In this document: positions 13,504 to 64,000 of the stretch, piece by piece
Layout: every line of letters begins with the position of its first letter
Position numbering within the stretch: the stretch's first letter is position 1
Assembly: GCA_027622665.1 (NCBI GenBank)
Contig: JAQBYT010000009.1
Location: 57,271 to 121,270 of the forward strand
Origin: Verrucomicrobiota bacterium
GTDB taxonomy: Bacteria > Verrucomicrobiota > Verrucomicrobiia > Opitutales > Seribacteraceae
Length of the DNA: 64,000 nt
Direction: 5' to 3'
The notes under the pieces: model-generated
Databases searched by the model: none
What the model was told of the DNA's origin: nothing
What the model saw: the letters and a program-made list of their open reading frames with translations, nothing else
Program-made: the position numbers and the translations under genes

Positions 13504-13508
13504 GATTG

Positions 13509-16583: not shown

Positions 16584-16585
16584 GG

Positions 16586-20730: not shown

Positions 20731-20784
20731 GTCCCTAATGTCGACTGATGTTCAACAGGCTTTGCTTCTACCAAACCGGATCGA

Positions 20785-21693
20785 TCATGCGGCCTTGCCT
20801 GCAGCGCGTTCGCCGAGAAACTTATCCAGTACCTCGGCCACGGGAACGTCAGTGCGAATGATGCGATGATCAGCCTCGGATTCGAGGCATCCCTGAGTAA
20901 TAGATTCGAGATGGATTTTCATGCTCTCGAGGTATTGCTCCCTGATTACGGCAGGTTCCGTAATCAGCGAACCGGCTCCCTCCAAGTCAACGAAGCGAGT
21001 TGGGCGTTCGAAGGGGAAATCCTCTTCTTGAGGGTCGATGAGATGAAATAAAACGACGTCGTGCCGACGGTCGCGTAAATGATGTATGGCATCGATCAAG
21101 TCTTTCGGGTCATCAAGAAAATCCGATATCACGACCGTCATTCCTCGAGGTCGGACTCTCTCCGCTAGATCATGCAGACTATCTACCAGAGAAGGTGCCC
21201 CCTTGGGTTTAAGGGGACCCATAGTCTCGAGCATTTCCTGAACCTGAGCCGGGTTGCGTTTTGCCGGTAGTTCGAACGATTTCTTGTCTCGAATGGCCAA
21301 GAGACCCGCGGCATCGCCTTGTCCGATAATTAAGTAAGCGAAAGTGGCGGCCAGCCTTTTAGCATATTCGAATTTACTTTCTGTCGCTCCAAAGCCCATG
21401 GAACCACTGCAATCTAGGGCAAGGTAGCAGCGTAGATTGGTTTCGGCTTCGAATTCCTTGAGGTAGTATCGGTCCGAACGGGCATACACTCGCCAATCCA
21501 TTCTACGAGGATCTTCTCCGGCTACGTATTCTCGGTATTCTGCAAATTCGACGCTGGAACCCTTGTGGGGACTTCTGTGATGCCCGGACACGCTACCTTC
21601 CATTGGAAATGGTGTGAGCAAGGGTTCAGAGGTGATGCGTGAAATAGCCTCCTTATCCAAGTACTTGAGGTAGGACTTACGTCGTCTACTCAT
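20785..21693 (-). CDS. DUF58 family protein
   Basis: GHHRSPHKGSSVEFAEYREY..GED.R.MDWRVYARSD; DCSGSM; ISDF. Confidence 0.95.
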   Translation of the reverse strand: MSRRRKSYLKYLDKEAISRITSEPLLTPFPMEGSVSGHHRSPHKGSSVEFAEYREYVAGEDPRRMDWRVYARSDRYYLKEFEAETNLRCYLALDCSGSMGFGATESKFEYAKRLAATFAYLIIGQGDAAGLLAIRDKKSFELPAKRNPAQVQEMLETMGPLKPKGAPSLVDSLHDLAERVRPRGMTVVISDFLDDPKDLIDAIHHLRDRRHDVVLFHLIDPQEEDFPFERPTRFVDLEGAGSLITEPAVIREQYLESMKIHLESITQGCLESEADHRIIRTDVPVAEVLDKFLGERAAGKAA

Positions 21694-22724
21694 CGTTTCT
21701 CCTTACGAGCTTCGGAGATGAGGCGTTGCACGACCTCGGAACTTGTCATTCCTTCCGAACGAGCATGAAAGTTAGTTAGAATGCGGTGAAATAGTACGGG
21801 TTCGGCCACTGCTTCGACATCTTCCGTGCTTGCCATGTAATTCCCATGTAAAACGGCTCGAGCCTTGGCTCCGCGAATCAGAAATTGTACAGCTCTTGGG
21901 CCAGCTCCCCACTGCACCCACCTACGCAACCAAGTAGGAGATTCATCGGAGTTCGGCCGAGTTCTGCGTACCAAGTCCACCGCCAGTTCATGCACGTGGT
22001 CGGGCACGGGGACTCGCTCTACCAATTCCTGGAACTCGCGAAGTTTCTTACCCGTAATTACCTTTTTCAATTTCGGAATATCCCCCGTCGTCGTTTCCTT
22101 GGATATTCGAATTTCCTCATCTCGAGAGGGATATTCCACTTTGATGAGGAACATGAAGCGATCGAGTTGAGCCTCGGGCAAGGGATAGGTGCCTTCCTGT
22201 TCGATTGGGTTTTGAGTGGCCAAAACGAAAAACGGTTCGGGCAAAACATGGTGCTTACCGGCCACAGTTACCCGTTTTTCCTGCATTGCTTCCAATAGAG
22301 CCGACTGCGTCTTAGGTGGAGTTCGGTTGATTTCATCGGCCAGAATCACATTTGCGAAGAGAGGCCCTTTGGCAAAAACGAATTCGCGTGCGAACCCTTC
22401 TCCTGTGGATTGGAGGATTTCGGTTCCCGTGACATCCGAGGGCATCAAGTCGGGAGTGAACTGGATACGACCGAAACTAAGTGAAGTCGTTTGAGCCAGA
22501 GAGTTGACCAGCAAAGTTTTCGCCAATCCCGGAACGCCCATGAGCAAGGCATGACCTCGCGACAACATACAGGTTAGCATTCGCTCGATGACTGCATCCT
22601 GACCGATGATGATTTTGCCCACTTCCGAGGTGATGTCGTCGTAGGAGGCGCGAAGTTCCTCGATAGCTTTGACGTCGCCCCCGGAAAGTTCCTTCGGGGT
22701 TTTGGTAGTGGTTTTAGTAGCCAT
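21690..22724 (-). CDS. moxR: MoxR family AAA+ ATPase
   Basis: GVPGLAKT, RIQFTPDLMPSD, DEINRTPPKTQSALLEAM, ATQNPIEQEGTYPLPEAQLDRF. Confidence 0.95.
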   Translation of the reverse strand: MATKTTTKTPKELSGGDVKAIEELRASYDDITSEVGKIIIGQDAVIERMLTCMLSRGHALLMGVPGLAKTLLVNSLAQTTSLSFGRIQFTPDLMPSDVTGTEILQSTGEGFAREFVFAKGPLFANVILADEINRTPPKTQSALLEAMQEKRVTVAGKHHVLPEPFFVLATQNPIEQEGTYPLPEAQLDRFMFLIKVEYPSRDEEIRISKETTTGDIPKLKKVITGKKLREFQELVERVPVPDHVHELAVDLVRRTRPNSDESPTWLRRWVQWGAGPRAVQFLIRGAKARAVLHGNYMASTEDVEAVAEPVLFHRILTNFHARSEGMTSSEVVQRLISEARKEKR

Positions 22725-22909
22725 AGTGGTTAAGGTTGTTGAATGGTAATTCAAGGAAGTGCAAGACGGGAGTCGCGAAAAGAATAGCTAAAATATATAT
22801 TTAGTAGGTTGAATGTACTTCCTGTACAATGCCGATGAAAACTGTCTTTATGCGACAGCTCTACTGTTTACTCTGGACTACCCTTTGCTTTCTCAATCAA
22901 CGTTGCATC

Positions 22910-41661: not shown

Positions 41662-43179
41662 TTACCCCGTTTTGCCGGTAGGCATGTAGCGATAGTACAC
41701 TTCCAGCATGAGAATCGTCATTGTAGTTCGATAGATATCGGAGTCTCCGTGGTAGTGAGCCCCGTGTGGCCAATGCCCGTCGGATTCCTGAGCCCCGCAT
41801 ACGATTTGCTGAAAGTTTTTGTTCCAAGCTCTCCAGTACTTCTGCCCGCCGCTCACGCCTGTCGCTTGAAAGCAGGCTTGGGCGTGGTAGTACCATTCGT
41901 AAACGTTGACACTTTTCCATTCTGTGGCTTGGTTGGCGATTATCCACTCCAGCCCTTTCTGGGCCTCTTGCGATTTGGCGTTTTTCCAAATTTGCAGACA
42001 GAGAACTCCGGCTCCCGTGAGGCTCGCCTTTCCACCAGAACCGATCTTGTAAGCGAACTTCCCGGTGGCATCCTGACATTTCTTAGTGTACTCGACTGCC
42101 TTGTCCATGGCTTCGTCGAGGCCGTCGATGGAAATTCCCGTGTAGGCGGCCGCCTTCAGTGCCTGAATGTTCCATCCTGTGACGGAAAGGTCGGTGTGAG
42201 CTCCAACTCCTTTTCCGTATCCATATGCCCAACCGCCGTTTTCGTTTTGCCCCTTTACGACGTGTTCGGAAGCTCGCTTGGCGAAAAGCTCGAGCTTCTT
42301 GATCTTGGTCATCGTGTAAGCTTCACACAGGGCGTAAGTCCTAATCGGATGGCTGTAAGATCCTTGATTCCCTCCTGCCATTTTCTCGGGCGGAGTAGAG
42401 GTAAGAAAGTTGATGGCTTTATGAACGGTGGGACCGAATGCCGGCGAATCCTGCAACTCGCAATGCCCGAGAAAGCTCAACAAGGCCATCGCCGTCATGG
42501 CGTTCTTGTCTTGCGGTGTTATTGCTCCCTCATCGCCTTTGGCGTCTCCACCCCAAGAGCCATCCTCCGCTTGGGTGTTTTTGAGCCAAGTCAATCCGCG
42601 AATGATGGCTGCTTCTGTAATGTCCTTGCCTCCACCCGAACGCAGTCTTTCAACCCGTTTTTTCGGGTCGCAGCGATTTTGCATGGTTTTGGGTAGATTG
42701 AGTCCGATTCCCTTGAGAGCGCTCTTCATGGCATCGTTGTTCATGCTGACTTCCCCTGTCTCGGGGGAAGCTACATCCACTACGGCAGCTAGGTCCTTAA
42801 CGTCGATTTCGTTGAGATCAGGCATTGCGATGTCGGAGATAGTCGTTGCCCGGAAAGTGGTTTTCACCGTTGGTTTCGCCTTTTTTTGGCGCTGCATCAG
42901 CTTAACTTTTTGCTGCTTCTGCTTTTGCTGGGTGGGAGCTACGCCTGCATCGGCGAAATCGGAAGAGCCTTCACCACCACCGCCGCCGGCCCAACCGACC
43001 GCCCACATTGCGGCCAAAAAAATTGTTACGGAAATGAGGGAAATAAGCAGGCTGTTGAGCAGACGGTATTCCCTGAGGTACTTGCCTAATGCACTTTCTA
43101 CCGGAGGGGCCACGGTTACGTGATCGTACTCTTCCTCCTCCATCGGGATGTCTTCGGGATGTTGGGCTTCCTGATCCAT
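41662..43179 (-). CDS. Membrane-anchored prenyltransferase/squalene-oxidase repeat protein
   Basis: N-terminal TM; WLKNTQAEDGSW, YSHPI.TYALCE, DLSVTGW, QESDGHW, LEVYYRY. Confidence 0.85.
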   Translation of the reverse strand: MDQEAQHPEDIPMEEEEYDHVTVAPPVESALGKYLREYRLLNSLLISLISVTIFLAAMWAVGWAGGGGGEGSSDFADAGVAPTQQKQKQQKVKLMQRQKKAKPTVKTTFRATTISDIAMPDLNEIDVKDLAAVVDVASPETGEVSMNNDAMKSALKGIGLNLPKTMQNRCDPKKRVERLRSGGGKDITEAAIIRGLTWLKNTQAEDGSWGGDAKGDEGAITPQDKNAMTAMALLSFLGHCELQDSPAFGPTVHKAINFLTSTPPEKMAGGNQGSYSHPIRTYALCEAYTMTKIKKLELFAKRASEHVVKGQNENGGWAYGYGKGVGAHTDLSVTGWNIQALKAAAYTGISIDGLDEAMDKAVEYTKKCQDATGKFAYKIGSGGKASLTGAGVLCLQIWKNAKSQEAQKGLEWIIANQATEWKSVNVYEWYYHAQACFQATGVSGGQKYWRAWNKNFQQIVCGAQESDGHWPHGAHYHGDSDIYRTTMTILMLEVYYRYMPTGKTG

Positions 43180-43443
43180 GGTATATTACTGGTAAGTGGT
43201 TTTATTTTGAATAATAATGTACGAGCGAACTTTCTCTAGGTCAAGTCCGGTCGCTGGCGTTGCTTTTCTGCACGCCGATCTATTTCGCGAACTGCATTTA
43301 GTTTCATTCATTGCTCGAGCCCTAATAATAAAATTCTTTAAATTATCTTATGGAGTAGTCTCGATTTTTACGTAATTTCAGGTAAGCTGTATGATTGTAA
43401 CTTGCGGTCTATTCAGTCTAGATTGATGTTTCTAATTATTCCA

Positions 43444-44193
43444 ATGCCTCTGAAATTCTTATATTCTTTCTTTTTTTGGGTTTTTGCGGCCATGATTTGT
43501 TCCTTCGTGTCGGGCCGGGATTCCCCACAGGACAGTAATGCCAGCATCAAACAGGAACAGGCACCCAAGATTGAGCGAGTTGCCTCGGGTGTATATCGGG
43601 TAGAGACCATACTTTTAGACAAGAACAGGAACCAAGTTTCCTTTCCTGCCGTAGTCAATCAGGTTCATGGTCTAGTCGAGTACGGAATCGTTCACGAGAA
43701 CGGCAAGACCCACGAATCCCTCTTTCGTACGAAAGTTCGGCCAATTCATCTGAACTTCGTGCTTCTGTTGGCCAAGTTGAAGCCCGCCAAGGGTTTTATC
43801 GAAAATCTTTGGGCGGAAAAACCCAAACCGATGGATGTGAGAGCTCACACGGTCGCCATAGACGTTTCCTGGGACTTCAATGGCTCGAAGGGCATCGTCT
43901 CCCTCGGATCGCTTGCGCTTAATGAACAGGACGACCAACCGATTGGGCCCAATGCCTTCGTCTTCACCGGTTCCAAGTTTCTCGGCGGTGATTTTCAAGC
44001 CGAGTCGACTGGTTCGATCCTTGCCGTTTATGCCGACGATACGTCCATGATAAATAGCGCCGACTACGACAGCAATAACGACGACGTATGGTACGCCAAC
44101 AAAAAGTCCTTACCTCCTCTGGAGACTCCTGTACTGATTACTTTGAAATTACCGAATAACGATCCGAACCCAAAACCGTTGCCACGACCATGA
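43444..44193 (+). CDS. YdjY-like exported protein
   Basis: VSFPAVVN...LVEY.IV...GKTHESL, FVFTGS, LPPLETPV.I. Confidence 0.75.
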   Translation: MPLKFLYSFFFWVFAAMICSFVSGRDSPQDSNASIKQEQAPKIERVASGVYRVETILLDKNRNQVSFPAVVNQVHGLVEYGIVHENGKTHESLFRTKVRPIHLNFVLLLAKLKPAKGFIENLWAEKPKPMDVRAHTVAIDVSWDFNGSKGIVSLGSLALNEQDDQPIGPNAFVFTGSKFLGGDFQAESTGSILAVYADDTSMINSADYDSNNDDVWYANKKSLPPLETPVLITLKLPNNDPNPKPLPRP

Positions 44194-45362
44194 AGCCAAT
44201 TTGTTTTTTCTCCATCTGCCTTGGACTTTTCCTTTCTGTTTTTTCCGGTTTTGGCGCACCCAAAGTCGAAGAGACGGTTGAGGATCGAAACAACCTTTCT
44301 CTTCGCAACGAAGTGGGGCGAGCCATCGAGAGGGGCGTGAAATGGCTCGCGACTGAACAAAACGCCACCTCCGGTCTTTGGGGGGGCGAAGAGTATCCGG
44401 CCATCACAGGCCTTTCTCTGCGAGCCATACTTGGAGATCCTGCCCGCAGAAACGGCGACAAATATTCTGCCGCCCTAGACAAAGGTTACTCTTTCATTCT
44501 TTCCAAAACCCAGAGTGATGGGGGTATCTACGGCAAAGGCCTCGCCTCTTACAATACTTCCATTTGCCTGATGGCCCTCCTGCAGCGCAAGAAACCCGAG
44601 TACAAACCGGTTATTCTCAAAGCCCGTAACTTTCTCATTAATCAACAGCATGATTTCGACTCTCGCGGAAAAAACGACAATGTTTTCGACGGGGGGATTG
44701 GTTATGGCGCCCGATGGGCTCACTCCGATCTTTCCAATACTCACCTCGCAATGGAAGCGCTCTTCTACACCAAGAAAATGATCGAAACCGAGGAGGGCGA
44801 CAAACTTGACCTGGATTGGAAAGCGGCCATCGCCTTTGTCGAAAAATGCCAGAATCTTCCCGGAAACAATAAAGAGAAGTGGGTTAGCGAAGATCCTTCG
44901 GACCGTGGCGGCTTCGTGTATTTTCCGGGTAGCAGTATGGCGGGCGAGCGAAAGCTGGCCGGCGGCAAGGTGGCTTTGCGTTCCTACGGAAGTATGAGTT
45001 ATGCCGGCATGCTTAGTTTCATTTATGCTGAAATGGATCCCAAGGATGACCGTGTGAAAGCCGTTAGGGATTGGCTCTCCCAAAACTACAGCGTGAAGGA
45101 GAATCCCGGTCTTGGTCCTCAGGGCATGTTCTATTATTTTCATACCATGGCAAAAGCCCTTTCTCTTTCCGGTTCTGAAAAGATAAAGGCCAAGGATGGT
45201 TCCCTCCATGATTGGCGGCATGAACTTGCCCGGAAACTTTTCGACCTGCAGAACCAAAAGGGTTACTGGCTTAATGAAAATGGACGATGGTGGGAGCGCG
45301 ACCCTGTACTCGTTACCTCTTACGCCTTACTCACTCTTGAACGTATTTACTACAGTCTGTAG
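44190..45362 (+). CDS. Secreted prenyltransferase/squalene-oxidase repeat protein
   Basis: ATGA overlap; QSDGGIY, DLSNT, GGFVYFPG, SYGSMSYAG, WWERDPVLVTSYA. Confidence 0.85.
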   Translation: MKPICFFSICLGLFLSVFSGFGAPKVEETVEDRNNLSLRNEVGRAIERGVKWLATEQNATSGLWGGEEYPAITGLSLRAILGDPARRNGDKYSAALDKGYSFILSKTQSDGGIYGKGLASYNTSICLMALLQRKKPEYKPVILKARNFLINQQHDFDSRGKNDNVFDGGIGYGARWAHSDLSNTHLAMEALFYTKKMIETEEGDKLDLDWKAAIAFVEKCQNLPGNNKEKWVSEDPSDRGGFVYFPGSSMAGERKLAGGKVALRSYGSMSYAGMLSFIYAEMDPKDDRVKAVRDWLSQNYSVKENPGLGPQGMFYYFHTMAKALSLSGSEKIKAKDGSLHDWRHELARKLFDLQNQKGYWLNENGRWWERDPVLVTSYALLTLERIYYSL

Positions 45363-51454: not shown

Positions 51455-52435
51455 ATGCGCACACCTCTTTTTCTTATTTTTACCGCCACTATTTTGTGTG
51501 TTCACATTGAAGGTGCGGTAGCTCCGTCTCCATTTCTGCCGCCCGGGTATAATTCCCGTCCCACGGAAAGACCAATTCAATCTCCGAGAAATCCGAAACC
51601 TCAAACACCGAATGTCCAAATATCAACAGAAATTGAATTAGGAGGATTTTTCTCTCTTGGAACTGGGGAGAGCCGGAAACTTTACTTTTCCCTTTTCAAT
51701 AAAAAAGTGAACCACTCGCAATGGATTACCATTGGAGAAAAAACGGATGAGGATTTTCTCGCCGAATCTTTTGATTTCGATACGGAAACCCTGACGGTAC
51801 GTTTTGGAGACTCTTCGCATGATCTATCCCTGCGGATGTCTAAAGGTACTCCCGGAGAAAAGCGTGGGTCGTCGAATACTCGCAATATTGCATCGACCAC
51901 CGCGTCCACTCCAGGCAAACCTCGCATCATGCCGCCTCGACCCAAGACCACTCCAACCTTGCCCCCTTGGCTTGCCAATCGATCGGCGTCCGGTTCGTCT
52001 CGCTCGGGTGGTGGGTATTCCGGTTCTCCTTCTTCCGGAGGCGGAACGAGCGGTCCAAGTTCAGCGAGTGCCTTACAGGCAACGCGAACTTTTTCCGGCG
52101 GACATTCAGGTGGCGATGTTCCACGTCCTATCAACAGCGTCAATTCTCCCGTTGTGTCGTCTCCTGCTACGGGTGTCTCCTCACCTTCGATAAATCCTTC
52201 ATACACCGGCTCAGCATCTGCACCTAATGACGGCGGCGCAACGACACCTTCAACTGACCCTTCCCCTTCCTCTACTTCGACCGGGGGAGGAAGTTCTGGG
52301 TCCGGATCTGCTGAAACTGGGGGAGGGGTATCGGGTTCAGAGATCGACCTGAGCAACCTGCCACCCCCTCCACCCCCTCCCAGTATTCTTCCTCCGGGAC
52401 CGCCTCCCAACATTATCCCTTCCCGTGAGGATTAG
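51455..52435 (+). CDS. Exported protein with small beta domain (GspC/PilP-like?) and long Ser/Pro/Gly-rich tail
   Basis: Hydrophobic N-terminus; FSL....SQWI.IGE......LTV.....L.L; low-complexity tail with poly-Pro. Confidence 0.6.
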   Translation: MRTPLFLIFTATILCVHIEGAVAPSPFLPPGYNSRPTERPIQSPRNPKPQTPNVQISTEIELGGFFSLGTGESRKLYFSLFNKKVNHSQWITIGEKTDEDFLAESFDFDTETLTVRFGDSSHDLSLRMSKGTPGEKRGSSNTRNIASTTASTPGKPRIMPPRPKTTPTLPPWLANRSASGSSRSGGGYSGSPSSGGGTSGPSSASALQATRTFSGGHSGGDVPRPINSVNSPVVSSPATGVSSPSINPSYTGSASAPNDGGATTPSTDPSPSSTSTGGGSSGSGSAETGGGVSGSEIDLSNLPPPPPPPSILPPGPPPNIIPSRED

Positions 52436-53702
52436 CTATGCGGCGGTCCTTGGACCGACGCTTCTTCTTTTATCTTTTGTAGCTGCGCAGAATCAACGGC
52501 GTATTGGAACTCGACACGATGTTTCGCTTGAGTTGCATCGTCAAATGGGTAGCAACCTCGGTTCCTTTTCATCGGGCGACCATTTTCCCGATCTTTCACC
52601 GGTCGGTCTGGTTCTGTCCCGTAACGGTTTTATTGGTACAGGTACTTTAATCTCTCCAACCATAGTTGTTACCGCCGGACACGTGTTGCGTGGTAGTTAC
52701 AAAGCAAAAGCGCCGGTTGCATCGGAATGGACTTTCTCCCTTGGTCCGGACTCACTGAAACCAACTGAGACTTACTCTGTTTCCGAAATTATTCTCCACC
52801 CCGGTTGGACTGCTCGACTGAGTTATGAAGGCGGTATTGGAGACGGTGACGTACTTGGTCTCGATCTTGCCTTGCTGAGACTCGATTCACCTGTAATCGG
52901 GGTGACTCCTGCTCGTTTTAACGCCGGAGATTCGGAACTGATCGGGTCTCGAGTAATTCTTGCTGGTTACGGAAGCATTGCCGATGGAAAAAGAGGTGTC
53001 ACTTCGGTTGATAATTTCGATCGATTGGCTGGCGAAAACACATTGGATCGAGTCATCGAAACCGTGAATGCCTCTAATGTTCCTCAAGCATATAGGGGAG
53101 GGTTGCTTGGCGTTGATTTCGATAGCCCAGACGAATTTTTCAATGCTCTTGGATCGAACGCTTCTCTCATCGATTATTTAGGCTCGGGATCCAGTGCTTC
53201 CACGCCTCTGCCTTACGAAGCGACAACCGCAGAGGGCGATAGTGGTGGTCCGGCCTTTGTGAAAATCAACGAAGTGTGGAAAGTTATCGGTACCGTATCC
53301 TATGGAAACGAGAGTTCTGTCTATGGCGACGTTACTGTTTACACTCGTTTAGCTTCGCAATCGGATTGGTTTAGCACATACCTAGAACGCTGGGCACCTG
53401 CACGTCGGACGGGCTTCGGGGAGTGGTTGAATCTTGATTGGTTGGGAAATTTTGCCACTTATCAAGGGGATTGGATCTTTCATGAAAAACTCGGCTGGTT
53501 TTATTCTCCAGACAATGAAGCTGATGAGTTTTGGGCATGGCAAACTGGAATCGGGTGGTGGTGGACTAGCATCCAAGCCTATCCTTACTTTTATGCGGAC
53601 GAAGGCAAATGCTGGCTCTATTTCTCTGCCAGTGATTCTACTCCCTCCCGCTGTCGCTTCTACAATTATGAGATTAAGGATTGGGAAATCTTTGAGCGCT
53701 AG
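52425..53702 (+). CDS. Secreted trypsin-like (S1) serine protease with Trp-rich C-terminal domain
   Basis: Catalytic triad VVTAGHV / DLALLRL / GDSGGP; signal peptide. Confidence 0.9.
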   Translation: MRISYAAVLGPTLLLLSFVAAQNQRRIGTRHDVSLELHRQMGSNLGSFSSGDHFPDLSPVGLVLSRNGFIGTGTLISPTIVVTAGHVLRGSYKAKAPVASEWTFSLGPDSLKPTETYSVSEIILHPGWTARLSYEGGIGDGDVLGLDLALLRLDSPVIGVTPARFNAGDSELIGSRVILAGYGSIADGKRGVTSVDNFDRLAGENTLDRVIETVNASNVPQAYRGGLLGVDFDSPDEFFNALGSNASLIDYLGSGSSASTPLPYEATTAEGDSGGPAFVKINEVWKVIGTVSYGNESSVYGDVTVYTRLASQSDWFSTYLERWAPARRTGFGEWLNLDWLGNFATYQGDWIFHEKLGWFYSPDNEADEFWAWQTGIGWWWTSIQAYPYFYADEGKCWLYFSASDSTPSRCRFYNYEIKDWEIFER

Positions 53703-53755: not shown

Positions 53756-54562
53756 ATGGAACCAATTCTAAGTCTCTTTCGTCGCCACGAGCTTTTTTGG
53801 CAGTTTCTTTCACGTAACGTAAAAGCTCGTCATCGTGGCAGTGTTCTGGGTGCTATATGGCTTGTCGCCAATCCTCTCCTAATGCTAAGTCTCTATGTTT
53901 TCGCATTCGGCGTTGTTTTCGGAGGTCGTTTCACCGACTCCCCCGACGAATCAACTCTCGACTACGCCCTCGGGGTTTTTCTAGGTCTTAATGTTCTGAG
54001 TCTGGTGTCGGGTGTCATTGGCGGTGCTCCCGGAGTGATCGTGGGCCAACCGAACTTCGTTAAAAAGGTCGTCTTTCCGCTAGAAATACTGCCCGCCGCG
54101 ATGGCTGGAGCCCTTGGCTACGACCTTCTCATCGGTCTAGGGCTGTGTCTTGTAGGTGTTGCCTCCCTCGGGCCGGGATTGACCCTTTCCGCTTGCTGGA
54201 TTCCCGTTATCGTTGCACCTGTTTTTTTCATTGCTTTGGGCTTGGCTTGGTTTTTTTCCGCCCTTGGCGTTTTTATTCGCGACGTTGGTCAACTCGGAGG
54301 ATTTTTCGGATTAGGCTTATTATATGCCAGTGGCGTTTTCTATTCCGCGGACAAGGTGCGCGAAACTGCTCCGGGTATCTGGGTTTTCTTAAAATGGAAT
54401 CCCCTGATTCACGTCATCGACTCTCTCCGTCAAGTTTGTCTTTGGGGAGGCGAGCCCTCGTTTCTGGCGTTGGCCTATGTTTGGGTATTCGGCGTTATCA
54501 TTTTGCTCATCGGCGCTTGGTTCTTCCATCGTCTACGTCCCGCTTTTGCCGATGTCTTGTGA
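53756..54562 (+). CDS. ABC-2 polysaccharide export permease (Wzm-like)
   Basis: R.RGS.LG..W....PLL.L..Y.F.F, VKKVVFPLEILP, RD, NPL..., FADVL. Confidence 0.9.
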   Translation: MEPILSLFRRHELFWQFLSRNVKARHRGSVLGAIWLVANPLLMLSLYVFAFGVVFGGRFTDSPDESTLDYALGVFLGLNVLSLVSGVIGGAPGVIVGQPNFVKKVVFPLEILPAAMAGALGYDLLIGLGLCLVGVASLGPGLTLSACWIPVIVAPVFFIALGLAWFFSALGVFIRDVGQLGGFFGLGLLYASGVFYSADKVRETAPGIWVFLKWNPLIHVIDSLRQVCLWGGEPSFLALAYVWVFGVIILLIGAWFFHRLRPAFADVL

Positions 54563-54731
54563 GGAAGAGCGAGTTTTGAAGTCAACCAGCCATAGTTTTG
54601 GAAAAATGAAAACTCCAGGGTTAACGTGATTATGCCTATCGTGCACATGGCCGAAAAGCCACTGGCCACGACGGTGCAGTTGACATTTCCATATGCCCAT
54701 GATTCTCACTTTAGGTAGCAATTCTTTTTCC

Positions 54732-55862
54732 TCAAGTTTCTCCGTATAGCGTCTTGGCTGTCTGTCTCCAAGTGAAGCCTGCGGCTCGTTCTCGGGCTTT
54801 TTGTCCGAGGCGTAGCCTAAGTTCATCGTCACGAAGCAGACGCTCGAGGGAACGGGCTAGATCGTCCGAGTCATTGGGGTCTACCAACAAGCCTGTTTCG
54901 TTATGGACTACGGCGTCCTCTACGCCCCCCGTACGGTGGGCAAGGGCAGGTAGACCGTGAGCGGCGGCCTCGAGGTAGACGAACCCGAACCCTTCAACGC
55001 TGCGAGGGTGGGGGACACTCGTGAGAGCGAATAGATCCGAGCTTTCGTATGCGATGCGGACGTCGTGATCCTTTAGATCGCCAAGAAAGTGGACGGGTAT
55101 GCCTGATGAATCGGCTTGCTCGCGCAGTCCTCGGGCGTAATGAGGACGCACCTCGGGGCCTATGACGTAATACTCCAGACCAGCCTTTAACTCGTTCGGC
55201 ATTTGTCTAATGGCTTCAAGAATGCGGTCCTGTCCTTTTCGAGGATGGAGTCGTCCGACGGTGAGCATTCGAAGTTTGCCTTCGGTGTTTTTGTCTTCGT
55301 TATCCTTGTTCTCGGGTAAGAAGATCCGACGTGAAGCCCCAGGAGCAAGCACGACCTTTGAAGTCAATTCAGGGAAGCGAGTAAGAAGGGCCTTTTTGTT
55401 GAAATGTGAAAGAAGATGAATCTCGTCTGCTTTCCTCAGAAGCTTGCGAAAAAAGAATTTCTCTAGGGGAAATCTGCTGAATAGGGGAATTTCGGAACCA
55501 TGCAGAGTAACTATCAGTCGAGCGGGCAAAAATCCGGCGAACGATCCTAACCGCAAGAAAGCCCGAAGGGCTCCGGGTTCTGCGAGATGCACGATGCTGC
55601 CTGCGAACTCGGCGGCGTTTCTCCGAACTTCTCTGATCAAACCCACGGAACAACGCCAATCCTGAGAACCTCGAAGGGGAAGCGAACTAAGGGAGTAGGG
55701 GAGGGAAGCGTTGCTTTCGGAATCGGGTGTTACGGGTGCCCAAACCTTTACTTCGTGGCCGAGCGATGCTGCTGCGTGAGCCATTTCTTCACAATAGACT
55801 CCTGCTCCACCCCGTTTCGGGGGAAATTCATGTGTGAGAAGATTTATCTTGTGCCTCGCCAT
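54732..55862 (-). CDS. Glycosyltransferase family 4
   Basis: EFPP..GG, VTLHGSE, VGRL.PRKG, EGFGFVYLEA. Confidence 0.92.
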   Translation of the reverse strand: MARHKINLLTHEFPPKRGGAGVYCEEMAHAAASLGHEVKVWAPVTPDSESNASLPYSLSSLPLRGSQDWRCSVGLIREVRRNAAEFAGSIVHLAEPGALRAFLRLGSFAGFLPARLIVTLHGSEIPLFSRFPLEKFFFRKLLRKADEIHLLSHFNKKALLTRFPELTSKVVLAPGASRRIFLPENKDNEDKNTEGKLRMLTVGRLHPRKGQDRILEAIRQMPNELKAGLEYYVIGPEVRPHYARGLREQADSSGIPVHFLGDLKDHDVRIAYESSDLFALTSVPHPRSVEGFGFVYLEAAAHGLPALAHRTGGVEDAVVHNETGLLVDPNDSDDLARSLERLLRDDELRLRLGQKARERAAGFTWRQTAKTLYGET

Positions 55863-55924
55863 ATCAAGAAGGTTCAACCATTGTTGACGAACGGTTACAT
55901 GGAGAAAAGGCGAATTTTCCGCAT

Positions 55925-56832: not shown

Positions 56833-59800
56833 TTAATCCGTGAAGTCCGTGCCGTCTGCGTTTATCCATTTGGTGTCGGAATACCGGTAAAACTTTCGCT
56901 TGCCGTTGCTGGTCGTGAAGTAGAGCCAGCCTGCGTGCGTTGAGGAATATAAATACTCAGCTTGAGAGGTTGAAGACGCATCGTAGTATGTAGACCCTGT
57001 CCAGAACCACCCCAGCTCGGCATCGAAGAACCAAAAGTTTCCGGAACCTGCGTCCGTCGAGTATAGCCAGCCGTGAGTTTCATGATACACCCAACCCGCC
57101 AAGGCATCGTAGAAGTTGCCGAGCCATGAGAGGTTGTACCAATCACCACTAGCTGAAGCATCAATCTTAGCCAATCCGGTAGCCAATGCAGAAACCGATG
57201 CATTGGAAACTGGTGCTATGTTTGTGAAGTGATCCGTCGTGGCATAGATTACACTGGCGTTTGAGTCGTAGGTACTGGATTTTAGTGAATCCCAACTGTT
57301 TTTCGTGGTGGAGTAGAATTTTGCCTCCATGTTGTCGGGATCGAGTCCCTTGGCGATGGCGGCGTTCTTATCTACGGGTATCTTCAAGATCACGTCTTTC
57401 TTGAAGTTGCCCTCGACTTTTTTGCCGGTCGAATCAAATAACTCGATGGAGTAGGCGTAGCTGGTCGGTTGATCACTGGCAGATTTCGTTAAACCCTTCA
57501 CGGTGGGGGTTACCACAGCTCGAACGGATGTTTCGGTCGACGCCACGTTTGCCGCACCACCCGGGATTGTCACTTCAGTTCCGTCGGGAAGCTTGGTCAC
57601 GAAGTCTTTTGAGGGATCGAAGGTGCCGTTGGTTCCTTCGGGAATTTTGAAGTCTGGTTTCTTGAGGGTAATGTTTAATTCGCTTTTAGTGTCCGCGTTC
57701 CTCAAGTCGGCATCCAACTCAACTTCCGCCAAGTAGATGGTTTCCGAACCGTTAGCTTCAACCTCTCCATAATCTGCTCCTACGTGCCAGACGACACCCT
57801 TGGGCACTTTTAGCTTGTATGAACCGTTGGCATCGGTTTCGCCTTCAATCACTCGACCGTCATCGGACCAAGCATACACGTATGCTCCGTCTAGGGCCGT
57901 ATTGTTGTCGTCCTTGACGATGCCTTCAATAAAATTGTCGTCGACAATCTTACCTAGCGATAAAGACAATCCGGATACGTTTGCTGACAAATCGACAGTT
58001 TTGACCTTTGGCTCAAGGTAACCGCTATCTCGAAGATCGTCGGGAAGAAAAGCGCCAATCTCATATTTACCGCCAGGGAGTACGGGTATAGAGAAAGTGC
58101 CGTTGGCATCGGTTTCCACTTCTTTCCGGAACTCGTCGAGGGTTCCCGTTCCTTCGCGGTGGGCCCATACGAAAACCGTGCCCGAGGTAATGGAAGCATT
58201 GTTTTCATCAAGAATGGAGCCGGATATGGAACCGGATGCACTTCGAAGAGAGAAGTCCTTCGACACGGATTCACCTGTCAATGCGATTACTTCGATTGGT
58301 TCCGGTGGATGTTGAGGCAAGTTTCGATCCTGTTCATCGGATTCGATGAAGTACCCAAGCGTCCAACGACCCGGAGACAAAGTCATGGAGAATGTGCCAT
58401 TGTCTTCAATTGGAGTCGTTTGCCAACCCCCACCGTCACCCTTGGCTGCATGAACCTCTCCGCTGAGACCAGTAACTCCTGTGCCGTTCAATTTCAAGGT
58501 TCCCGTAACGACTGCATCATTGGCCTCAAGATTAAAGGCGATTTCCGTCAGAGCCGTTCCGTTGACATCGCGAAGTGTACCATTTTGATCAAGTTGAAGG
58601 TACTTTTCAGCAGGGTTCGCATAGCCTGAACCAGGGGGCATCCAGAGACCCACAAAATATTCTCCAGGTACCGCAGGGAAGTCGAACTTACCTCGTGAAT
58701 CGACAGGTACTTCGGCCAAAATGTCATCGAATTCTTCTCCAGTATTTGCATCTCGAGCATAGGCCCAAGCATCTACATCCGTAGCTGCTTTACCTCCCGC
58801 ATAAACAGCGCCTTTAACGGTTGCTCCCGCTTCTTTGGCGGTGAAGTTTATCGATGCGCTCTGGTCATTGGTTAGCTTTACTCTTTTGGGTGGTGCGGGC
58901 AGGTAGGGTGGGACGCTGCCATCTTCGGCAGGCAACAACTCGAAACCGACTTCCCATTGCCCAGGCGAGACGGTTAGGTTGTAGGCGCCGTTGACGTTGG
59001 TGACGTCGGACACCCAGCCTCCTTTTTCGCTCCATGCCCATACTTCTACGTTAGGCAAAGCTTTTCCTCCGTCGGTCTTTACCGATCCCTCGATTTTTGA
59101 ATTGCGAGACTCGAGGTAGAAGTTTTCCAGGACAAGGGCGGTCTTCCCCACTCTGGCGAACTTGATTTCGCTGCTGCCAAAGCCCTTTAGTTCTGGAGAC
59201 ACCCATAAGGAAATTTCGTAATTACCCGGTTGTAGTGGTATCTCGAAACTGCCGTTGGAATCTAGGTCGAGATCCGTCCAGTTGCCACGACCTTCGTGGT
59301 CAAAAGCGTCAACCGAAACATATTGATAGATGTCTGCCCAAGTCTTGCCTGCAGGAGCTACAATGTGTCCGCTAACTTTACCTCCCGCCGCTTTGCTGAC
59401 TGTGAAGTTGACGCTCTTACTTTCCTTTCCGGAGTCTTTCCTGAAGGCAACTCTTTTAGGTTCCTTTTCGTAAGTCCAGTCGACTTTAACGTCGTGTGGA
59501 CGATATACCGTCACTTCCCATTTGCCCGGACCGGCAACGAGTTCAAAGCTACCGTCCGCTGCAGAGAGAATGGAACTCCATCCCTCACCTTCTTCTCGCC
59601 AAGCTACGATCTCTGCGCCGGTCACGGTATTATTGAAGTCATCGAATACGTAACCGGTAATTGTTTTCTTTGGCGGAGCCAAGTAGATGATCGGGTTGGA
59701 AACCTTTACGCTTGATTCATCGAGAGTGATACTTCCCTTACTCGTTTCGGCTTTAACTTGATACTTATAACTTTCACCGGGTTGTACCGAAATATCAACG

Positions 59801-62800
59801 AACGAGGTGATCTTGGCGGTTGGCTTGTCTTCATCAGAACTGAAGATACTTCTGAAGGACGATTCGGCGGATGCCTTTCGTTCTATATCGAAAGAAGTGG
59901 CTTTGACGCTGCTTTTCCATTCCAAGCGAATTGCGTTCCCGAGATTCAGATCCCGATCGGGATTACGGACGTTAAATGAAATCGGTTCCGGTCGTAGGGC
60001 GGAGAGTTGACCAGGAAGGTCAATCTGCAAGGCGTACTGACCTGCCTCTTGAAGGTTAAGAGAGAAGATGCCATTATCGTCCGTTTCACTAAAAGCCTCA
60101 TTAAAAGTAATGGTTTCCGGGTTGCCTGAGGCATCGTCGAAGTCTAAATCAGGAACTCCATCGCCATTATCATCTTGAAAAGCCCATATGTGAGCGTGGG
60201 TAAGGGGAGCATTGCGAGTCTCGCCTGTCGCGGGGTCTTTACGAGGGAAGAGGATTTTCCCGTAGACGTTAGATGATTGCAGGACCAAGTCTACGGTTTT
60301 GTTTGAATCGATCAAGTCGACGTCAATCGGAAGCGATTCGCGGAAACTCCGGAATGATTCTGAGTCGAAGGGAGGTTCGGCGAAAACTACCCAGTCATCT
60401 CTTGCCGGTAAATTCTTTAGTTCGAAACTTCCGTCTGCCCGAGTATTCACATGGTCTAGCCATAACAAATAGTCTCTGGTGTGCACGATAATCCGGGCCT
60501 TAGGCACTGCGGTGCCGTCTTTGGTCTTCACTGTGCCGCTGATCTTTGCGCCGGCAGGAACAGGTCCCGCCTCTTCTCCGTCTTCCTCGTCGTTATCCAT
60601 CCATGCGAATCCGAATCGTTCGGCTTCACTTTTCTCAAAGGCTTTAAGTGCGACTCTTGCCAGAGTTGTGGTATTGCCATCGGTCAGGGTCACGGGAGCA
60701 CCCTTTTCCCATGTGCTGTTACGCCATCCTCCAGTGCCCGAGTCGTTCACAATGCGGAATGCCGGCTCGTATCCATCGGCTTCTACTTGTATCTTGTAAG
60801 TGCCGCCGGGGACTTTCAATACATATGATCCATTGAAGTCCGAATTATCACCCTCAGGGTGGAATTGTCCTACGGAACGAACCTCGGGGAATATCACTTC
60901 TCCTTCTTGGTTTTCCGCATCATGGAAAAGAAACCATGCATATTTAACCGGAGCAGAGGTGTTTACATCTACGACTTGGACATGAACCGTGGCGGTTGGG
61001 CGAGACTCCAATCGGATGTTTATTCCGGCAACGCCGGCATCAGTGACTTGCACAATTTCGGCAGAAGCGAAACTGTCGGCATTCCCTTCACCACTCGTGT
61101 AATACGCCGGAAGCAGAGCACCGTCGAAACGTTTTGCCAATATCTTGTAGGAACCTGCAGGAATCTCTGCAGTGAAATGTCCCGTTGGTAAACCCGTTGA
61201 TTCATTATGTTCAACTTCGAATTGTCTGGGCCAAGTTATTTCTTCTTCTTCGTCTTGATCAACAAAGAGAACCTCTGCCCAAATTCCGTTGCCTTCGGCA
61301 TCCGTAATGCGTCCGCTAACTGTGGAAACCGAACGTTTTGTTAGTACGATTTCAGGTAATTCAAGCAATTGACCGGCTACTAAAGTAATGGACACGTCTT
61401 GATCGTTATAAGCGTTGTCCCATGAGACGACTTCTCCTCGGAAGGTTCCCGACGGTGCGTTTGATTTGATTTTTCCGTCATGCTCTACAAATAGCATATG
61501 AACGGGGTGGTCCGTAAGATCAGCGCCGTTTTCATCGATGGGGAACATTTCAATGGCAAGACCTTCTACCGGCTGTCCATCGAAGGTTACGGATCCAGTT
61601 ACTTCACTCATTTCGTGCGAAACTCTGATCTCAGCCTCTAAGTTGAAATCTTGGGTCAAAGTAGTGTTTGCATCTTGAATTGAAAAGGTGCGAGGAGTTT
61701 CGCGACCACCAGCCAGTACAGGTTTGTAAGATGTATCCGTAGCAGGGTCGTAGGCACTTGCCTCGACATAATAGATACCCTTCGGAAGCCTAGCGACAAA
61801 AGTGCCGTTGGTCTCATTGACTTCCAAGTCGAAGAACACCGGTTTTCCCGCGTAAATATCTTCACCCGCTGTTCGGTTTGCATCAATGATCCATATCCCG
61901 AAGTCACTCAATGGAGTTGGTGAACCGTTGATATTTGTAGTTACCGATCCACTAATCGAACCGAAGTCGTTCACATTGATGCTTGCAAACGGATCCAGCC
62001 ATGGATCACCAATCTGAATTTCACCCGGCCAAGAGGCGTTAACTAAGGAAACACCCAACATGGAATCGACGAAACCATCGCCATCAAAATCGATAAATGA
62101 ATTTTCGACGTCGTCATCGTCACTCTCGTCGTCATGGTCATCCTCCGCATCACCGATTGGACTGGTTTGGAGTCCACCTTCTTGGGCTAAACCTTCTCCA
62201 TGTTCATCCAGACCAAAATGCGTTTCGTCCAGTTTGAATTCATTTTGCGAATGAGCGTCGAAACCATCTGGTTCATATCCCTCGTAAGGGGTGCGGTGGA
62301 AATCAATGAAACTTAGTGTCCCGTCTTCACGCAATACGGCTGCTTTTAAGTCGTTTCGATCCCATATCCCGAACTTGTGTTGAATCAGTTGCTTTGGTAA
62401 ATATGCCTTCACGGATGTATTGGCATCAGATAATCCGTTGAGGCGGAAGCCAGTCACGGGATCCCACGGGGACGATAAATCCGGACCTTTTACGTCCTGA
62501 GGAATGACGTTTGCCACGAAGAGGGCTCCATCGTGGAAACGCTCACCACCCATTTCCACGAGAATGCCGAATGTGGATGAAACCGAGTCGTTGGGGTTGT
62601 GGTTGGAAGCGACGGGGTCGACCGTCTTGGCTTGAATCGTGAATGACCCGGGCTTGTCCCACTCCGGGCGACGATGCTTGAATGCGGTTACGTCGGCGCC
62701 GCTTACGGCAAAGTATCGAGGAGGGCCCATCGCGTAGGTGAAGGTCAAGTTTAGTGATGTGTTGGCGTCAAGAACGGTGGAAGCTAAGTCGAAGTCGGCG

Positions 62801-63999
62801 GCCGAGGCGTTTCCTTCGACGGACGACTTGTTCAAAAGGGCGATGCGGTAGAGCATGCTGCCTTCATCGTCCCCATCCAATTTTTTGATGTGTACGAATG
62901 CGTCTGATCCATTGCCGCCATTCGTTTTGGCAGGACTTGTTTCTGTGTCTTGCACGAAGTTGCCCCCATTGGAGGAAGTCCCCCACTTGGATCGACCAAC
63001 GTCGAATTTCAGACCGGCGTCGACTTGTTGGAGGCGTTCCTGCCAAGGGTCGCGGACCCCAATCTCGGTTCCGTTCGCATCAAAGATGATTTCTCTCTCG
63101 TCGTTAAGGTGAGCGACGAACTCCATAATTCCATCCAAGCCAAGTCTTTCCTCCACCCAATATCCAATTCCTTGTTCGCCGTCCTTGTATTTTTCGTTCA
63201 GAATGTTCGTTGCAGTCGATGGGAGTTCCGGTTCTTTCCATTCCTCAAAATCAGATTTTTCGTGTTCATGCGTGTGAACGATCTTTCCATTAGAATCGAT
63301 TGCTACCTCAAGCTTTTCCCCTTCCGCATTTTCAATTACGGCAAGGTAGTAGAAGCTTTTCTCTTCTCCTGCGGAAACCGGTTCCAAAGAGAATTCCTTT
63401 TCCAGTTCGGTTATTTTTGAACCTGGGAAAGTTGTGTCGATCGATTCTTTAACCACCGCCGGGGAATTTGCAGGAGCAATTTCTTCTACTTCCGTGTCAG
63501 CGAAATCATCAGCATAAGTGGAGTGGAGGAAGGTCTTGTTCTCATCGAAAATAAGGATCTTCCCGTTATCTAGGGCAACTTCGTAAACAAAGCCATTTTC
63601 TCTAGCCGAGTCGAATAACTTTTCAGCCATCATGACTTTGGTACCTTCATAGTGTACCTTGTCGCCCATCCATGCATCGACAAAACCTTCGACTTCGAAA
63701 ATGGGTATACCCTGTTGAGCGGGTTGATGGTGTTCTTGACCAGCCTCTTGTTCATCGGTGCCCGCGGTCTGATTCCCTTCATCGTGCCCTTGTTCGCCTT
63801 GTTCGTCGGTGCCTGCGGTCTGATTCCCGTCGTCGTGCCCTTGTTCGCCTTGTTCGTCGGTGCCCGCGGTCTGATTCCCGTCGTCGTGCCCTTGTTCGCC
63901 TTGGTCATCGGTGCCCGCGGTCTGATTCCCGTCATCGTGCCCTTGTTCGCCTTGTTCGTCGGTGCCCGCGGTCTGATTCCCTTCATCGTGCCCTTGTTC
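56833..63999 (-). CDS. Giant acidic surface protein (>2380 aa, 5' end outside window): tandem repeats, PepSY/BLIP-like domains, carboxypeptidase-regulatory-like repeats, ZU5-like domain, Trp-rich C-terminal domain
   Basis: Translated by hand: frame open from 63999 into the track ORF at 63669; repeated ISG.V...G.P...A.V.......TD..G.F......G.Y units. Confidence 0.9.
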   Translation of the reverse strand, partial: EQGHDEGNQTAGTDEQGEQGHDDGNQTAGTDDQGEQGHDDGNQTAGTDEQGEQGHDDGNQTAGTDEQGEQGHDEGNQTAGTDEQEAGQEHHQPAQQGIPIFEVEGFVDAWMGDKVHYEGTKVMMAEKLFDSARENGFVYEVALDNGKILIFDENKTFLHSTYADDFADTEVEEIAPANSPAVVKESIDTTFPGSKITELEKEFSLEPVSAGEEKSFYYLAVIENAEGEKLEVAIDSNGKIVHTHEHEKSDFEEWKEPELPSTATNILNEKYKDGEQGIGYWVEERLGLDGIMEFVAHLNDEREIIFDANGTEIGVRDPWQERLQQVDAGLKFDVGRSKWGTSSNGGNFVQDTETSPAKTNGGNGSDAFVHIKKLDGDDEGSMLYRIALLNKSSVEGNASAADFDLASTVLDANTSLNLTFTYAMGPPRYFAVSGADVTAFKHRRPEWDKPGSFTIQAKTVDPVASNHNPNDSVSSTFGILVEMGGERFHDGALFVANVIPQDVKGPDLSSPWDPVTGFRLNGLSDANTSVKAYLPKQLIQHKFGIWDRNDLKAAVLREDGTLSFIDFHRTPYEGYEPDGFDAHSQNEFKLDETHFGLDEHGEGLAQEGGLQTSPIGDAEDDHDDESDDDDVENSFIDFDGDGFVDSMLGVSLVNASWPGEIQIGDPWLDPFASINVNDFGSISGSVTTNINGSPTPLSDFGIWIIDANRTAGEDIYAGKPVFFDLEVNETNGTFVARLPKGIYYVEASAYDPATDTSYKPVLAGGRETPRTFSIQDANTTLTQDFNLEAEIRVSHEMSEVTGSVTFDGQPVEGLAIEMFPIDENGADLTDHPVHMLFVEHDGKIKSNAPSGTFRGEVVSWDNAYNDQDVSITLVAGQLLELPEIVLTKRSVSTVSGRITDAEGNGIWAEVLFVDQDEEEEITWPRQFEVEHNESTGLPTGHFTAEIPAGSYKILAKRFDGALLPAYYTSGEGNADSFASAEIVQVTDAGVAGINIRLESRPTATVHVQVVDVNTSAPVKYAWFLFHDAENQEGEVIFPEVRSVGQFHPEGDNSDFNGSYVLKVPGGTYKIQVEADGYEPAFRIVNDSGTGGWRNSTWEKGAPVTLTDGNTTTLARVALKAFEKSEAERFGFAWMDNDEEDGEEAGPVPAGAKISGTVKTKDGTAVPKARIIVHTRDYLLWLDHVNTRADGSFELKNLPARDDWVVFAEPPFDSESFRSFRESLPIDVDLIDSNKTVDLVLQSSNVYGKILFPRKDPATGETRNAPLTHAHIWAFQDDNGDGVPDLDFDDASGNPETITFNEAFSETDDNGIFSLNLQEAGQYALQIDLPGQLSALRPEPISFNVRNPDRDLNLGNAIRLEWKSSVKATSFDIERKASAESSFRSIFSSDEDKPTAKITSFVDISVQPGESYKYQVKAETSKGSITLDESSVKVSNPIIYLAPPKKTITGYVFDDFNNTVTGAEIVAWREEGEGWSSILSAADGSFELVAGPGKWEVTVYRPHDVKVDWTYEKEPKRVAFRKDSGKESKSVNFTVSKAAGGKVSGHIVAPAGKTWADIYQYVSVDAFDHEGRGNWTDLDLDSNGSFEIPLQPGNYEISLWVSPELKGFGSSEIKFARVGKTALVLENFYLESRNSKIEGSVKTDGGKALPNVEVWAWSEKGGWVSDVTNVNGAYNLTVSPGQWEVGFELLPAEDGSVPPYLPAPPKRVKLTNDQSASINFTAKEAGATVKGAVYAGGKAATDVDAWAYARDANTGEEFDDILAEVPVDSRGKFDFPAVPGEYFVGLWMPPGSGYANPAEKYLQLDQNGTLRDVNGTALTEIAFNLEANDAVVTGTLKLNGTGVTGLSGEVHAAKGDGGGWQTTPIEDNGTFSMTLSPGRWTLGYFIESDEQDRNLPQHPPEPIEVIALTGESVSKDFSLRSASGSISGSILDENNASITSGTVFVWAHREGTGTLDEFRKEVETDANGTFSIPVLPGGKYEIGAFLPDDLRDSGYLEPKVKTVDLSANVSGLSLSLGKIVDDNFIEGIVKDDNNTALDGAYVYAWSDDGRVIEGETDANGSYKLKVPKGVVWHVGADYGEVEANGSETIYLAEVELDADLRNADTKSELNITLKKPDFKIPEGTNGTFDPSKDFVTKLPDGTEVTIPGGAANVASTETSVRAVVTPTVKGLTKSASDQPTSYAYSIELFDSTGKKVEGNFKKDVILKIPVDKNAAIAKGLDPDNMEAKFYSTTKNSWDSLKSSTYDSNASVIYATTDHFTNIAPVSNASVSALATGLAKIDASASGDWYNLSWLGNFYDALAGWVYHETHGWLYSTDAGSGNFWFFDAELGWFWTGSTYYDASSTSQAEYLYSSTHAGWLYFTTSNGKRKFYRYSDTKWINADGTDFTD
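63745..63999 (-). repeat. Coding tandem repeat, 51 bp / 17 aa, at least 5 copies
   Basis: EQGHD(D/E)GNQTAGTD(E/D)QG repeated up to the window edge. Confidence 0.95.
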
Positions 64000-64000
64000 G

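Follow-up and report, generated by a model that had tools for sequence, protein, structure and literature searches.

The window, meaning the whole 64,000-nucleotide stretch analysed, belongs to a genome that is 93.5% complete (G000) and carries a giant gene on the minus strand, the frame of which stays open up to the end of contig C30 and is 5'-truncated there. Its features are as follows.

56833..63999, minus strand: giant exported protein, ~2425 aa when complete (by P0289), with 31 D/E-x-N-x-S/T sequons; predicted acceptor
63747..64000, minus strand: 51-bp (17-aa) tandem repeat in 5 copies with one D/E-G-N-Q-T sequon each, directly after the signal-peptide-like start in P0289
57261..63540, minus strand: 26 non-repeat sequons (positions are those of the first Asn-codon bases, running from 63540 to 57261)
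56836..57120, minus strand: Trp/Tyr-rich C-terminal domain, ~95 aa, common in large exported proteins of G000

The frame encodes 2278 aa from its first ATG and is open for 2388 aa. We rejected the ATG at 63669 as the start of the protein, as the N-terminus of P0289, a database protein of 2425 aa that is 99% identical to the giant protein over the searched region, extends upstream with a signal-peptide-like stretch followed by the 17-aa repeat; the junction between the two is matched by the loose end of a contig from a DNA run. The DNA runs containing the window sequence are marine, estuarine or aquatic. Contigs from RNA runs include parts of the giant gene (3/3 runs) and of the enzyme gene described below (4/4 runs), and were rejected as evidence of transcription for want of a silent control or strand information.

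The body of the protein is a chain of tandem CarboxypepD_reg/transthyretin-like beta-sandwich domains, and the structure model of its last 855 aa has a pLDDT of 73. The Trp/Tyr-rich C-terminal domain was not confidently modelled (pLDDT below 50), has no Pfam match, and retrieves only unnamed clusters from the ESM Atlas, with a low recognition score; it is present in 63/251 Opitutales genomes, enzyme-positive and enzyme-negative alike, and likely serves in sorting or anchoring. Elsewhere in the window, a trypsin-like protein (52425-53702, plus strand) has the same domain without any D/E sequon, an ABC-2 permease and a GT4 glycosyltransferase (53756-55877) lie near the giant gene, and 12508-22754 and 41662-45362 hold MoxR AAA, DUF58, BatA/vWA and prenyltransferase/squalene-cyclase-like repeat genes.

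Acidic sequons in the giant protein

The sequence-only reading had rested on a hand count of Campylobacter-type sequons in this protein, and our recount reproduces its figures: the 2278-aa frame contains 43 N-x-S/T, 26 of them with D/E at -2, the terminal repeat contributes 5 further sequons, and with N-G cases removed 16/29 sites keep D/E at -2. The D+E content, estimated there at about one residue in six, measures 16.1%. The proposed enrichment of D/E at -2 of N-x-S/T relative to other Asn is also borne out (26/43 vs 17/73, Fisher p=1.2e-4). In 5000 shuffles of the protein, N-x-S/T occurred 16.6 times on average (maximum 35) and the full D/E-x-N-x-S/T sequon 2.5 times (maximum 12), and control residues taken in the giant protein in place of Asn are not preceded by an excess of D/E (Q 0/6, D 2/28, G 2/20, S 4/36, A 2/28, K 2/18). 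A DNA-repeat artefact behind the motif was rejected, with 28 different 15-mers and mixed codons among the 31 sites.

Such a pattern could nevertheless be structural, the motifs being Asx/beta-turn caps (D-x-N-G-T/S) of the beta-sandwich repeats, inflated by an Asn- and acid-rich composition, with any STT3 gene in the genome unrelated. In keeping with this, 10/26 D/E sequons are N-G-S/T, and the structure model of the last 855 aa places 10 of its 11 D/E-sequon Asn in coil or turn and 1 in a strand. The non-glycine sites counted above, more than half of which still have D/E, argue against it, and composition cancels in an odds ratio computed among Asn residues only; the comparison with homologues, to which we return below, bears on it most directly.

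An STT3/PglB-like enzyme encoded outside the window

An STT3/PglB gene, which the sequence-only reading had predicted for this genome, was found on another contig (C43:2660-5920; L003:2660-5920), intact and with a WWDYG motif. It is the single match above cut-off and encodes 1086 aa, in which the STT3 N-terminal (PF02516) and core (PF21436) domains score above cut-off at 74.5 and 79.8 bits. Its PDB sequence matches are Campylobacter PglBs only, the closest being that of C. lari (E 5e-43; profile 9e-98), and its structure model (pLDDT 84) retrieves 5OGL, 6GXC and 3RCE as top Foldseek matches (E 8e-30, TM 0.72 of target), with eukaryotic and archaeal OSTs at E 3e-11 or weaker. It falls below the NCBIfam PglB equivalog cut-off (NF050801, 196.6 bits vs 1300). 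Its relatives come from Opitutia, Opitutales and Puniceicoccaceae MAGs, and public annotations already name some of these clade proteins STT3 domain proteins or protein glycosyltransferases.

With C. lari numbering read off alignments, residues D56, R147, D154, D156, E319 and R375 correspond to D123, R218, D225, D227, E451 and R529 of the enzyme and are kept in 118/118 clade members, as is WWDYG (630-634); I572 of the +2 pocket corresponds to I746, kept in 115/118, and the equivalent of R331 is R463 (118/118), which stands 12 residues past E451 as in C. lari. Positions of this type (D56/R147/D154/D156/E319/R331/R375/WWD/I572) are listed as acceptor or metal ligands in the available text of PMC3527161. 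By sequence and modelled fold we assign the enzyme to the STT3 family, and its acceptor side appears PglB-like. R331 forms a salt bridge to the -2 acid, yet according to the available text of PMC4894442 its presence is not sufficient: D. gigas PglB retains this residue and is relaxed, so R331 alone is no proof of a -2 rule.

Several further features of the enzyme and its homologues were recorded. It carries a Cys-rich insertion after EL5 (residues ~465-485) and a C-terminal beta-rich extension of ~190 aa (residues ~900-1086), and a phmmer search with its EL5 fragment alone gave no matches. A change of M318 to R was rejected as a peculiarity of the Opitutales clade, being common to 119/119 Campylobacterota-like proteins. 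The homologue P0076 has a match to PF01476, which we take to be LysM, and in the PglB-like protein P0120 the WWDYG motif is degenerate (SWGHG), possibly reflecting another function.

Sequon statistics across the genome

Genome-wide statistics were compiled for the 3369 ORFs of G000, called by an in-house rule and assigned to export classes by an in-house hydropathy rule, with repeats removed. The enrichment of D/E at -2 of N-x-S/T over N-x-other, which the sequence-only reading had suggested comparing between exported and cytoplasmic proteins, is strong in the former and near-absent in cytoplasm-like proteins. In the signal/N-terminal-TM class, D/E at -2 is associated with S/T at +2 with an odds ratio (OR) of 2.7 (902/3373 vs 2551/21567), and in multi-TM proteins with an OR of 3.0; cytoplasm-like proteins give 1.20 (p=0.005) overall and a non-significant 1.11 under 700 aa. 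No such association was seen in the exported class when D, Q, G, S, H or K replaces N, and Pro abolishes it (OR 0.77 with Pro at -1, 0.54 with Pro at +1). Among G000 sequons Pro is depleted at +3, D is preferred over E at -2 and T over S at +2. At -2 the values for D and E, 0.36 and 0.22, are the only ones to rise above the 0.10-0.15 of the remaining residues.

These numbers also bear on the possibility that the enzyme is active but relaxed, accepting any N-x-S/T as Desulfovibrio PglBs do, with D/E only aiding efficiency and the other 17 sites of the giant protein glycosylated too, a reading that differs from our best explanation in strictness only. The D. gigas precedent described above is in its favour, as is the giant protein itself, where 17/73 Asn without D/E at -2 are followed by S/T, slightly above the S+T content of 15%. 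Across the genome, however, N-x-S/T without D/E has no enrichment (0.115 vs 0.116), and the restriction of the -2 signal to the two acidic residues argues in the same direction; we therefore consider a relaxed enzyme unlikely, and a -2 acidic rule the better reading.

Sequons are concentrated in few proteins: 28/3369 ORFs have at least 10 and together hold 766/1648, at 10.6 per 1000 aa. The giant protein had been proposed as a major substrate, and with 31 sequons it is indeed a predicted acceptor, but one among these 28 heavily tagged ORFs. Contigs C34, C2, C3, C55, C42 and C12 hold other giant ORFs, 1600-13400 aa long and with 52-80 sequons apiece. The motif also occurs on folds unrelated to the beta-sandwich repeats, which turn caps would not explain: in YidC of G000 all four sites lie in the large domain ahead of the membrane core, and in SecDF the two large loops contain 3/4, the fourth site being of ambiguous topology. 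The tags on these two proteins point to a general glycosylation system.

Distribution of enzyme and sequons among relatives

The enzyme is present in 57/76 genomes of the family, and in 24/26 of those at least 90% complete. In a sample of the order it occurs in 12/13 family genomes and 0/237 other Opitutales, and in a sample of the phylum STT3 was found in 3/401 genomes, two of these being of a divergent type. A profile search did not find the enzyme in 11 control genomes outside the family, nor in the family genomes G206 and G608, with positive controls detected in 2/2 cases. Both of the latter genomes (90-91% complete) have sequons, and their assemblies are fragmented into ~120 and ~230 contigs; we rejected them as natural enzyme losses, as their housekeeping proteins keep sequons and assembly gaps are likelier. 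The enzyme marks one clade, and the comparisons that follow represent one evolutionary event, for which p-values describe the contrast and not independent trials. Separately, a second, very divergent STT3 of ~705 aa with a WWDNG motif was observed in another family of the phylum (L137 and L138, from G381 and G310).

Proteins sharing the Trp/Tyr-rich C-terminal domain differ sharply between the two groups. They score 343/754 in the family and 17/190 outside it, and S/T comes after D/E-x-N-G in 73/120 cases vs 0/23. Sequon density in 20 family and 20 outside proteins is 7.8 vs 0.67 per 1000 aa, for 40 loci picked for long frames among 150 matches listed of ~550, with totals that include the control loci L062 (wrong frame) and L057 (partial) and that count G206 as family though the enzyme was not found there. 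Not every family surface protein is densely tagged, three carrying merely 1.3-1.5 sites per 1000 aa. Asn content in proteins with this domain is 6.8% in the family vs 4.4% outside, which a compositional origin of the motif would lead one to expect. The reading of the motifs as turn caps is nevertheless largely refuted by homologues of the same fold from the enzyme-negative family f28, which at 41% identity have 2 and 3 sequons vs 13 in the compared region and retain the same turns, with D, S or Q standing where Asn is. We consider this reading hardly tenable, and favour sequons as glycan acceptors. A close homologue, P0333, has 1 site in the compared region.

In an alignment of 50 C-terminal regions, made up of the query plus 49 of 61 matches, 537 sequons occupy 62 columns and are often shifted by one residue. 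The contrast extends to random 20-kb stretches, in which the signal class gives an OR of 1.84 for enzyme-positive genomes (20 stretches, 6 family genomes) and 0.78 for enzyme-negative ones (40 stretches, 14 genomes); multi-TM proteins were not enriched in the small enzyme-positive sample (5/56, OR 0.68). YidC has 4, 4 and 5 periplasmic sites in three genomes of the genus; five genomes from a second genus have 1-2, and 23/26 genomes outside the family have none, with one of 30 loci giving no match. An 895-aa membrane-anchored protein, presumably PpiD-like and without a Pfam or NCBIfam match, has D/E-x-N-R-S/T at one place in 30/30 orthologues, with D/E and S/T interchanging, in a comparison of orthologues only.

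The donor side

On the donor side the enzyme differs from Campylobacter PglB. Y468 is replaced by S in 118/118 clade members vs Y in 119/119 Campylobacterota-like proteins, and D481 by S or A in 118/118 vs D in 119/119, the DGGK loop being of TSPA type; similar replacements of Y468 and D481 in the distant homologues P0118-P0120 mean that the change is not unique to the Opitutales clade. The available text of PMC3527161 describes Y468 and the DGGK loop as important to C. jejuni PglB activity, and proposes that Y468 and D481 coordinate the C2 N-acetyl group of the donor's first sugar. The replacements seen in the clade sequences hint at a different first sugar on the donor.

Alternatively, the sequons might be a relic or be read by another protein, the STT3 enzyme with its changed loop being inactive or serving some other transfer. 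Changes of D475 and G481 inactivate C. jejuni PglB (PMC3527161, available text), and G206 and G608 have sequons with no enzyme found, though in assemblies fragmented as described. Against this, the G000 frame is intact, catalytic residues are invariant across 118 clade proteins down to ~35% identity, and sites move between orthologues yet persist. We judge an inactive or diverted enzyme very unlikely, and regard the enzyme as probably active, with an altered donor pocket.

The PglB-like periplasmic system with a -2 acidic rule put forward by the sequence-only reading is supported, with qualifications. Its two computational checks, on the enzyme gene and on the -2 enrichment, both turned out in its favour; R463 and the sequon statistics favour its acceptor side, and the donor loop and the lack of a pgl cluster depart from it. 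No glycan genes were recognised among the neighbours of the G000 enzyme gene, which does not lie in a pgl-type cluster. When 20 loci are compared, the genes conserved beside it encode a large exported protein and a pair of unnamed membrane proteins, the family-model scan of neighbours covering G000 and one other locus. Because the donor loop and gene context differ from those of the Campylobacter type, we classify the predicted enzyme as a PglB variant.

At L003:5979-9984 (minus strand) the enzyme gene is preceded by genes for the two membrane proteins, a 573-aa coiled-coil protein and a 764-aa protein with 2-4 sequons, which are found upstream of the enzyme in 7/20 and 6/20 loci, most loci being too short to show them; they are possible accessory subunits. 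Directly downstream lies the gene of an FG-GAP repeat protein (G000:C43:1-2435, minus strand; L003) with 43 sequons, most of which belong to a tandem 8-aa D-G-N-F-T repeat continuing past the contig end; in 2 other loci at genus level, the enzyme is likewise followed by a related gene.

Two sets of genes could supply a donor. Contig C13 of G000 carries a short PGT, a WecA-like gene, a dehydratase, a LegC-family aminotransferase, a GNAT acetyltransferase (not PglD-type) and a PglK-like ABC transporter below cut-off. Genes of this type are patchy in 33 family genomes (close short PGT 10/33, WecA-like 14/33, PglK-like 17/33), and such islands assemble poorly. The second candidate is a WcaJ-type PGT, the family's only core phosphoglycosyltransferase, present in 60/76 family genomes; its best specific NCBIfam model is a glucose-1-phosphate transferase, below cut-off, and it adjoins a WecG/TagA/CpsF-family transferase and an exosortase. 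The gene also occurs in 45/81 order genomes and so is not specific to the glycosylation system, and the WcaJ-type/WecG-family pair may serve the exosortase system instead. The idea that the enzyme and the WcaJ-type gene were lost together was rejected: 7/76 genomes are without both (19 without the enzyme, 16 without the WcaJ-type gene; p=0.10), and incompleteness explains this. The locus at G000:C39:8260-15596 (L095) comprises an exosortase-like gene, TPR-like and NusG-like genes, a regulator, the WcaJ-type PGT and the WecG-family transferase, and is conserved among housekeeping genes, the PGT and the transferase occurring together in 18/19 loci.

Because the core PGT resembles a glucose-1-phosphate transferase and Y468 and D481 are changed, a hexose-primed donor is a possibility, though less likely than not. 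We tentatively propose, as a possibility that may well prove wrong, that the clade OST keeps the -2 rule with a donor pocket rebuilt (Y468 to S, DGGK to TSPA) for a non-acetamido first sugar, probably glucose, that the donor is primed by the WcaJ-type PGT and the WecG/TagA/CpsF-family transferase, and that giant surface proteins are coated at ~1 site per 90 residues.

Relation to known glycosylation systems

The enzyme resembles C. lari and C. jejuni PglB (3RCE, 5OGL, 6GXC) in fold, in D56/R147/D154/D156/E319/R375, WWDYG, I572 and R331, and differs in its 1086 aa vs ~710 aa, with insertions and the C-terminal extension, in the Y468 and DGGK replacements, in a structural-alignment identity of only 23%, and in phylum. 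With the Campylobacter Pgl pathway it shares the D/E-x-N-x-S/T signature with x not Pro (statistical here) and periplasmic housekeeping substrates, whereas its gene stands apart from glycan genes and its predicted substrates have dozens of sites per protein. Environmental Campylobacterota PglBs (Sulfurovum, Sulfurimonas, Sulfuricurvum, Hydrogenimonas) share T-I/V-R-E and the R331 equivalent (119/119), and are the neighbouring group of the Opitutales clade in a quick, unrooted tree with long branches, from which we infer neither donor nor direction of transfer; all 119 keep Y468 and D481, and the Opitutales proteins group on a separate branch with a long stem.

Desulfovibrio PglBs are likewise bacterial single-subunit OSTs beyond Campylobacterota, and are set apart by description, accepting non-acidic residues at -2 (PMC4894442, available text) where the Opitutales substrate statistics favour D/E. 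Helicobacter pullorum has pgl genes scattered over several loci and the D/E-x-N-x-S/T sequon (PMC6025236, available text), but differs in its HexNAc reducing end and its PglCAJH enzymes; in the Opitutales family no orthologous set common to all members was identified.

In the available text of the literature consulted, tested bacterial PglBs are described from Campylobacterota, Desulfobacterota and one Aquificae species. No description of an N-OST system in Verrucomicrobia, Verrucomicrobiota or Opitutales was found in the openly accessible literature searched: the available text of PMC12229607 does not mention Verrucomicrobia, and that of PMC4973528, PMC7203096 and PMC6025236 gives no such description either.

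Proposed model and significance

Taking these lines of evidence together, it is highly probable that this marine Opitutales family has one PglB-like OST glycosylating periplasmic D/E-x-N-x-S/T (x not Pro), with the giant protein a major acceptor of ~30 sites, and the family likely coats its exported proteins densely with N-linked sugars. In the model that we propose, the giant protein would be exported via its signal peptide, E451, D123 and D225 of the enzyme would hold the metal and the Asn, WWD630-632 and I746 would read the +2 Ser/Thr, and R463 would read the -2 Asp/Glu. A lipid-linked glycan would then be transferred in the periplasm to Asn in exposed turns, giving ~30 glycans per giant-protein chain. 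The enzyme appears to have been gained first, with existing D-x-D/S-G turns then converted into sequons and sequon repeats expanded. More speculatively, the dense sugars coating rod-like surface proteins could offer protection from proteases, phages or grazers.

C. jejuni PglB transfers glycans with hexose reducing ends poorly or not detectably, a stated limit of PglB glycoengineering in the available text of PMC4422122, and the Opitutales enzyme would address that limit should its altered pocket accept glycans primed with hexose. If our reading is true, a general N-glycosylation system would be added for a marine Verrucomicrobiota family, with a site density far above a handful per protein. 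It would also illustrate how a surface proteome can be rewritten through the gain of a single enzyme: between enzyme-positive and enzyme-negative homologues, the difference falls exactly at the acceptor Asn.
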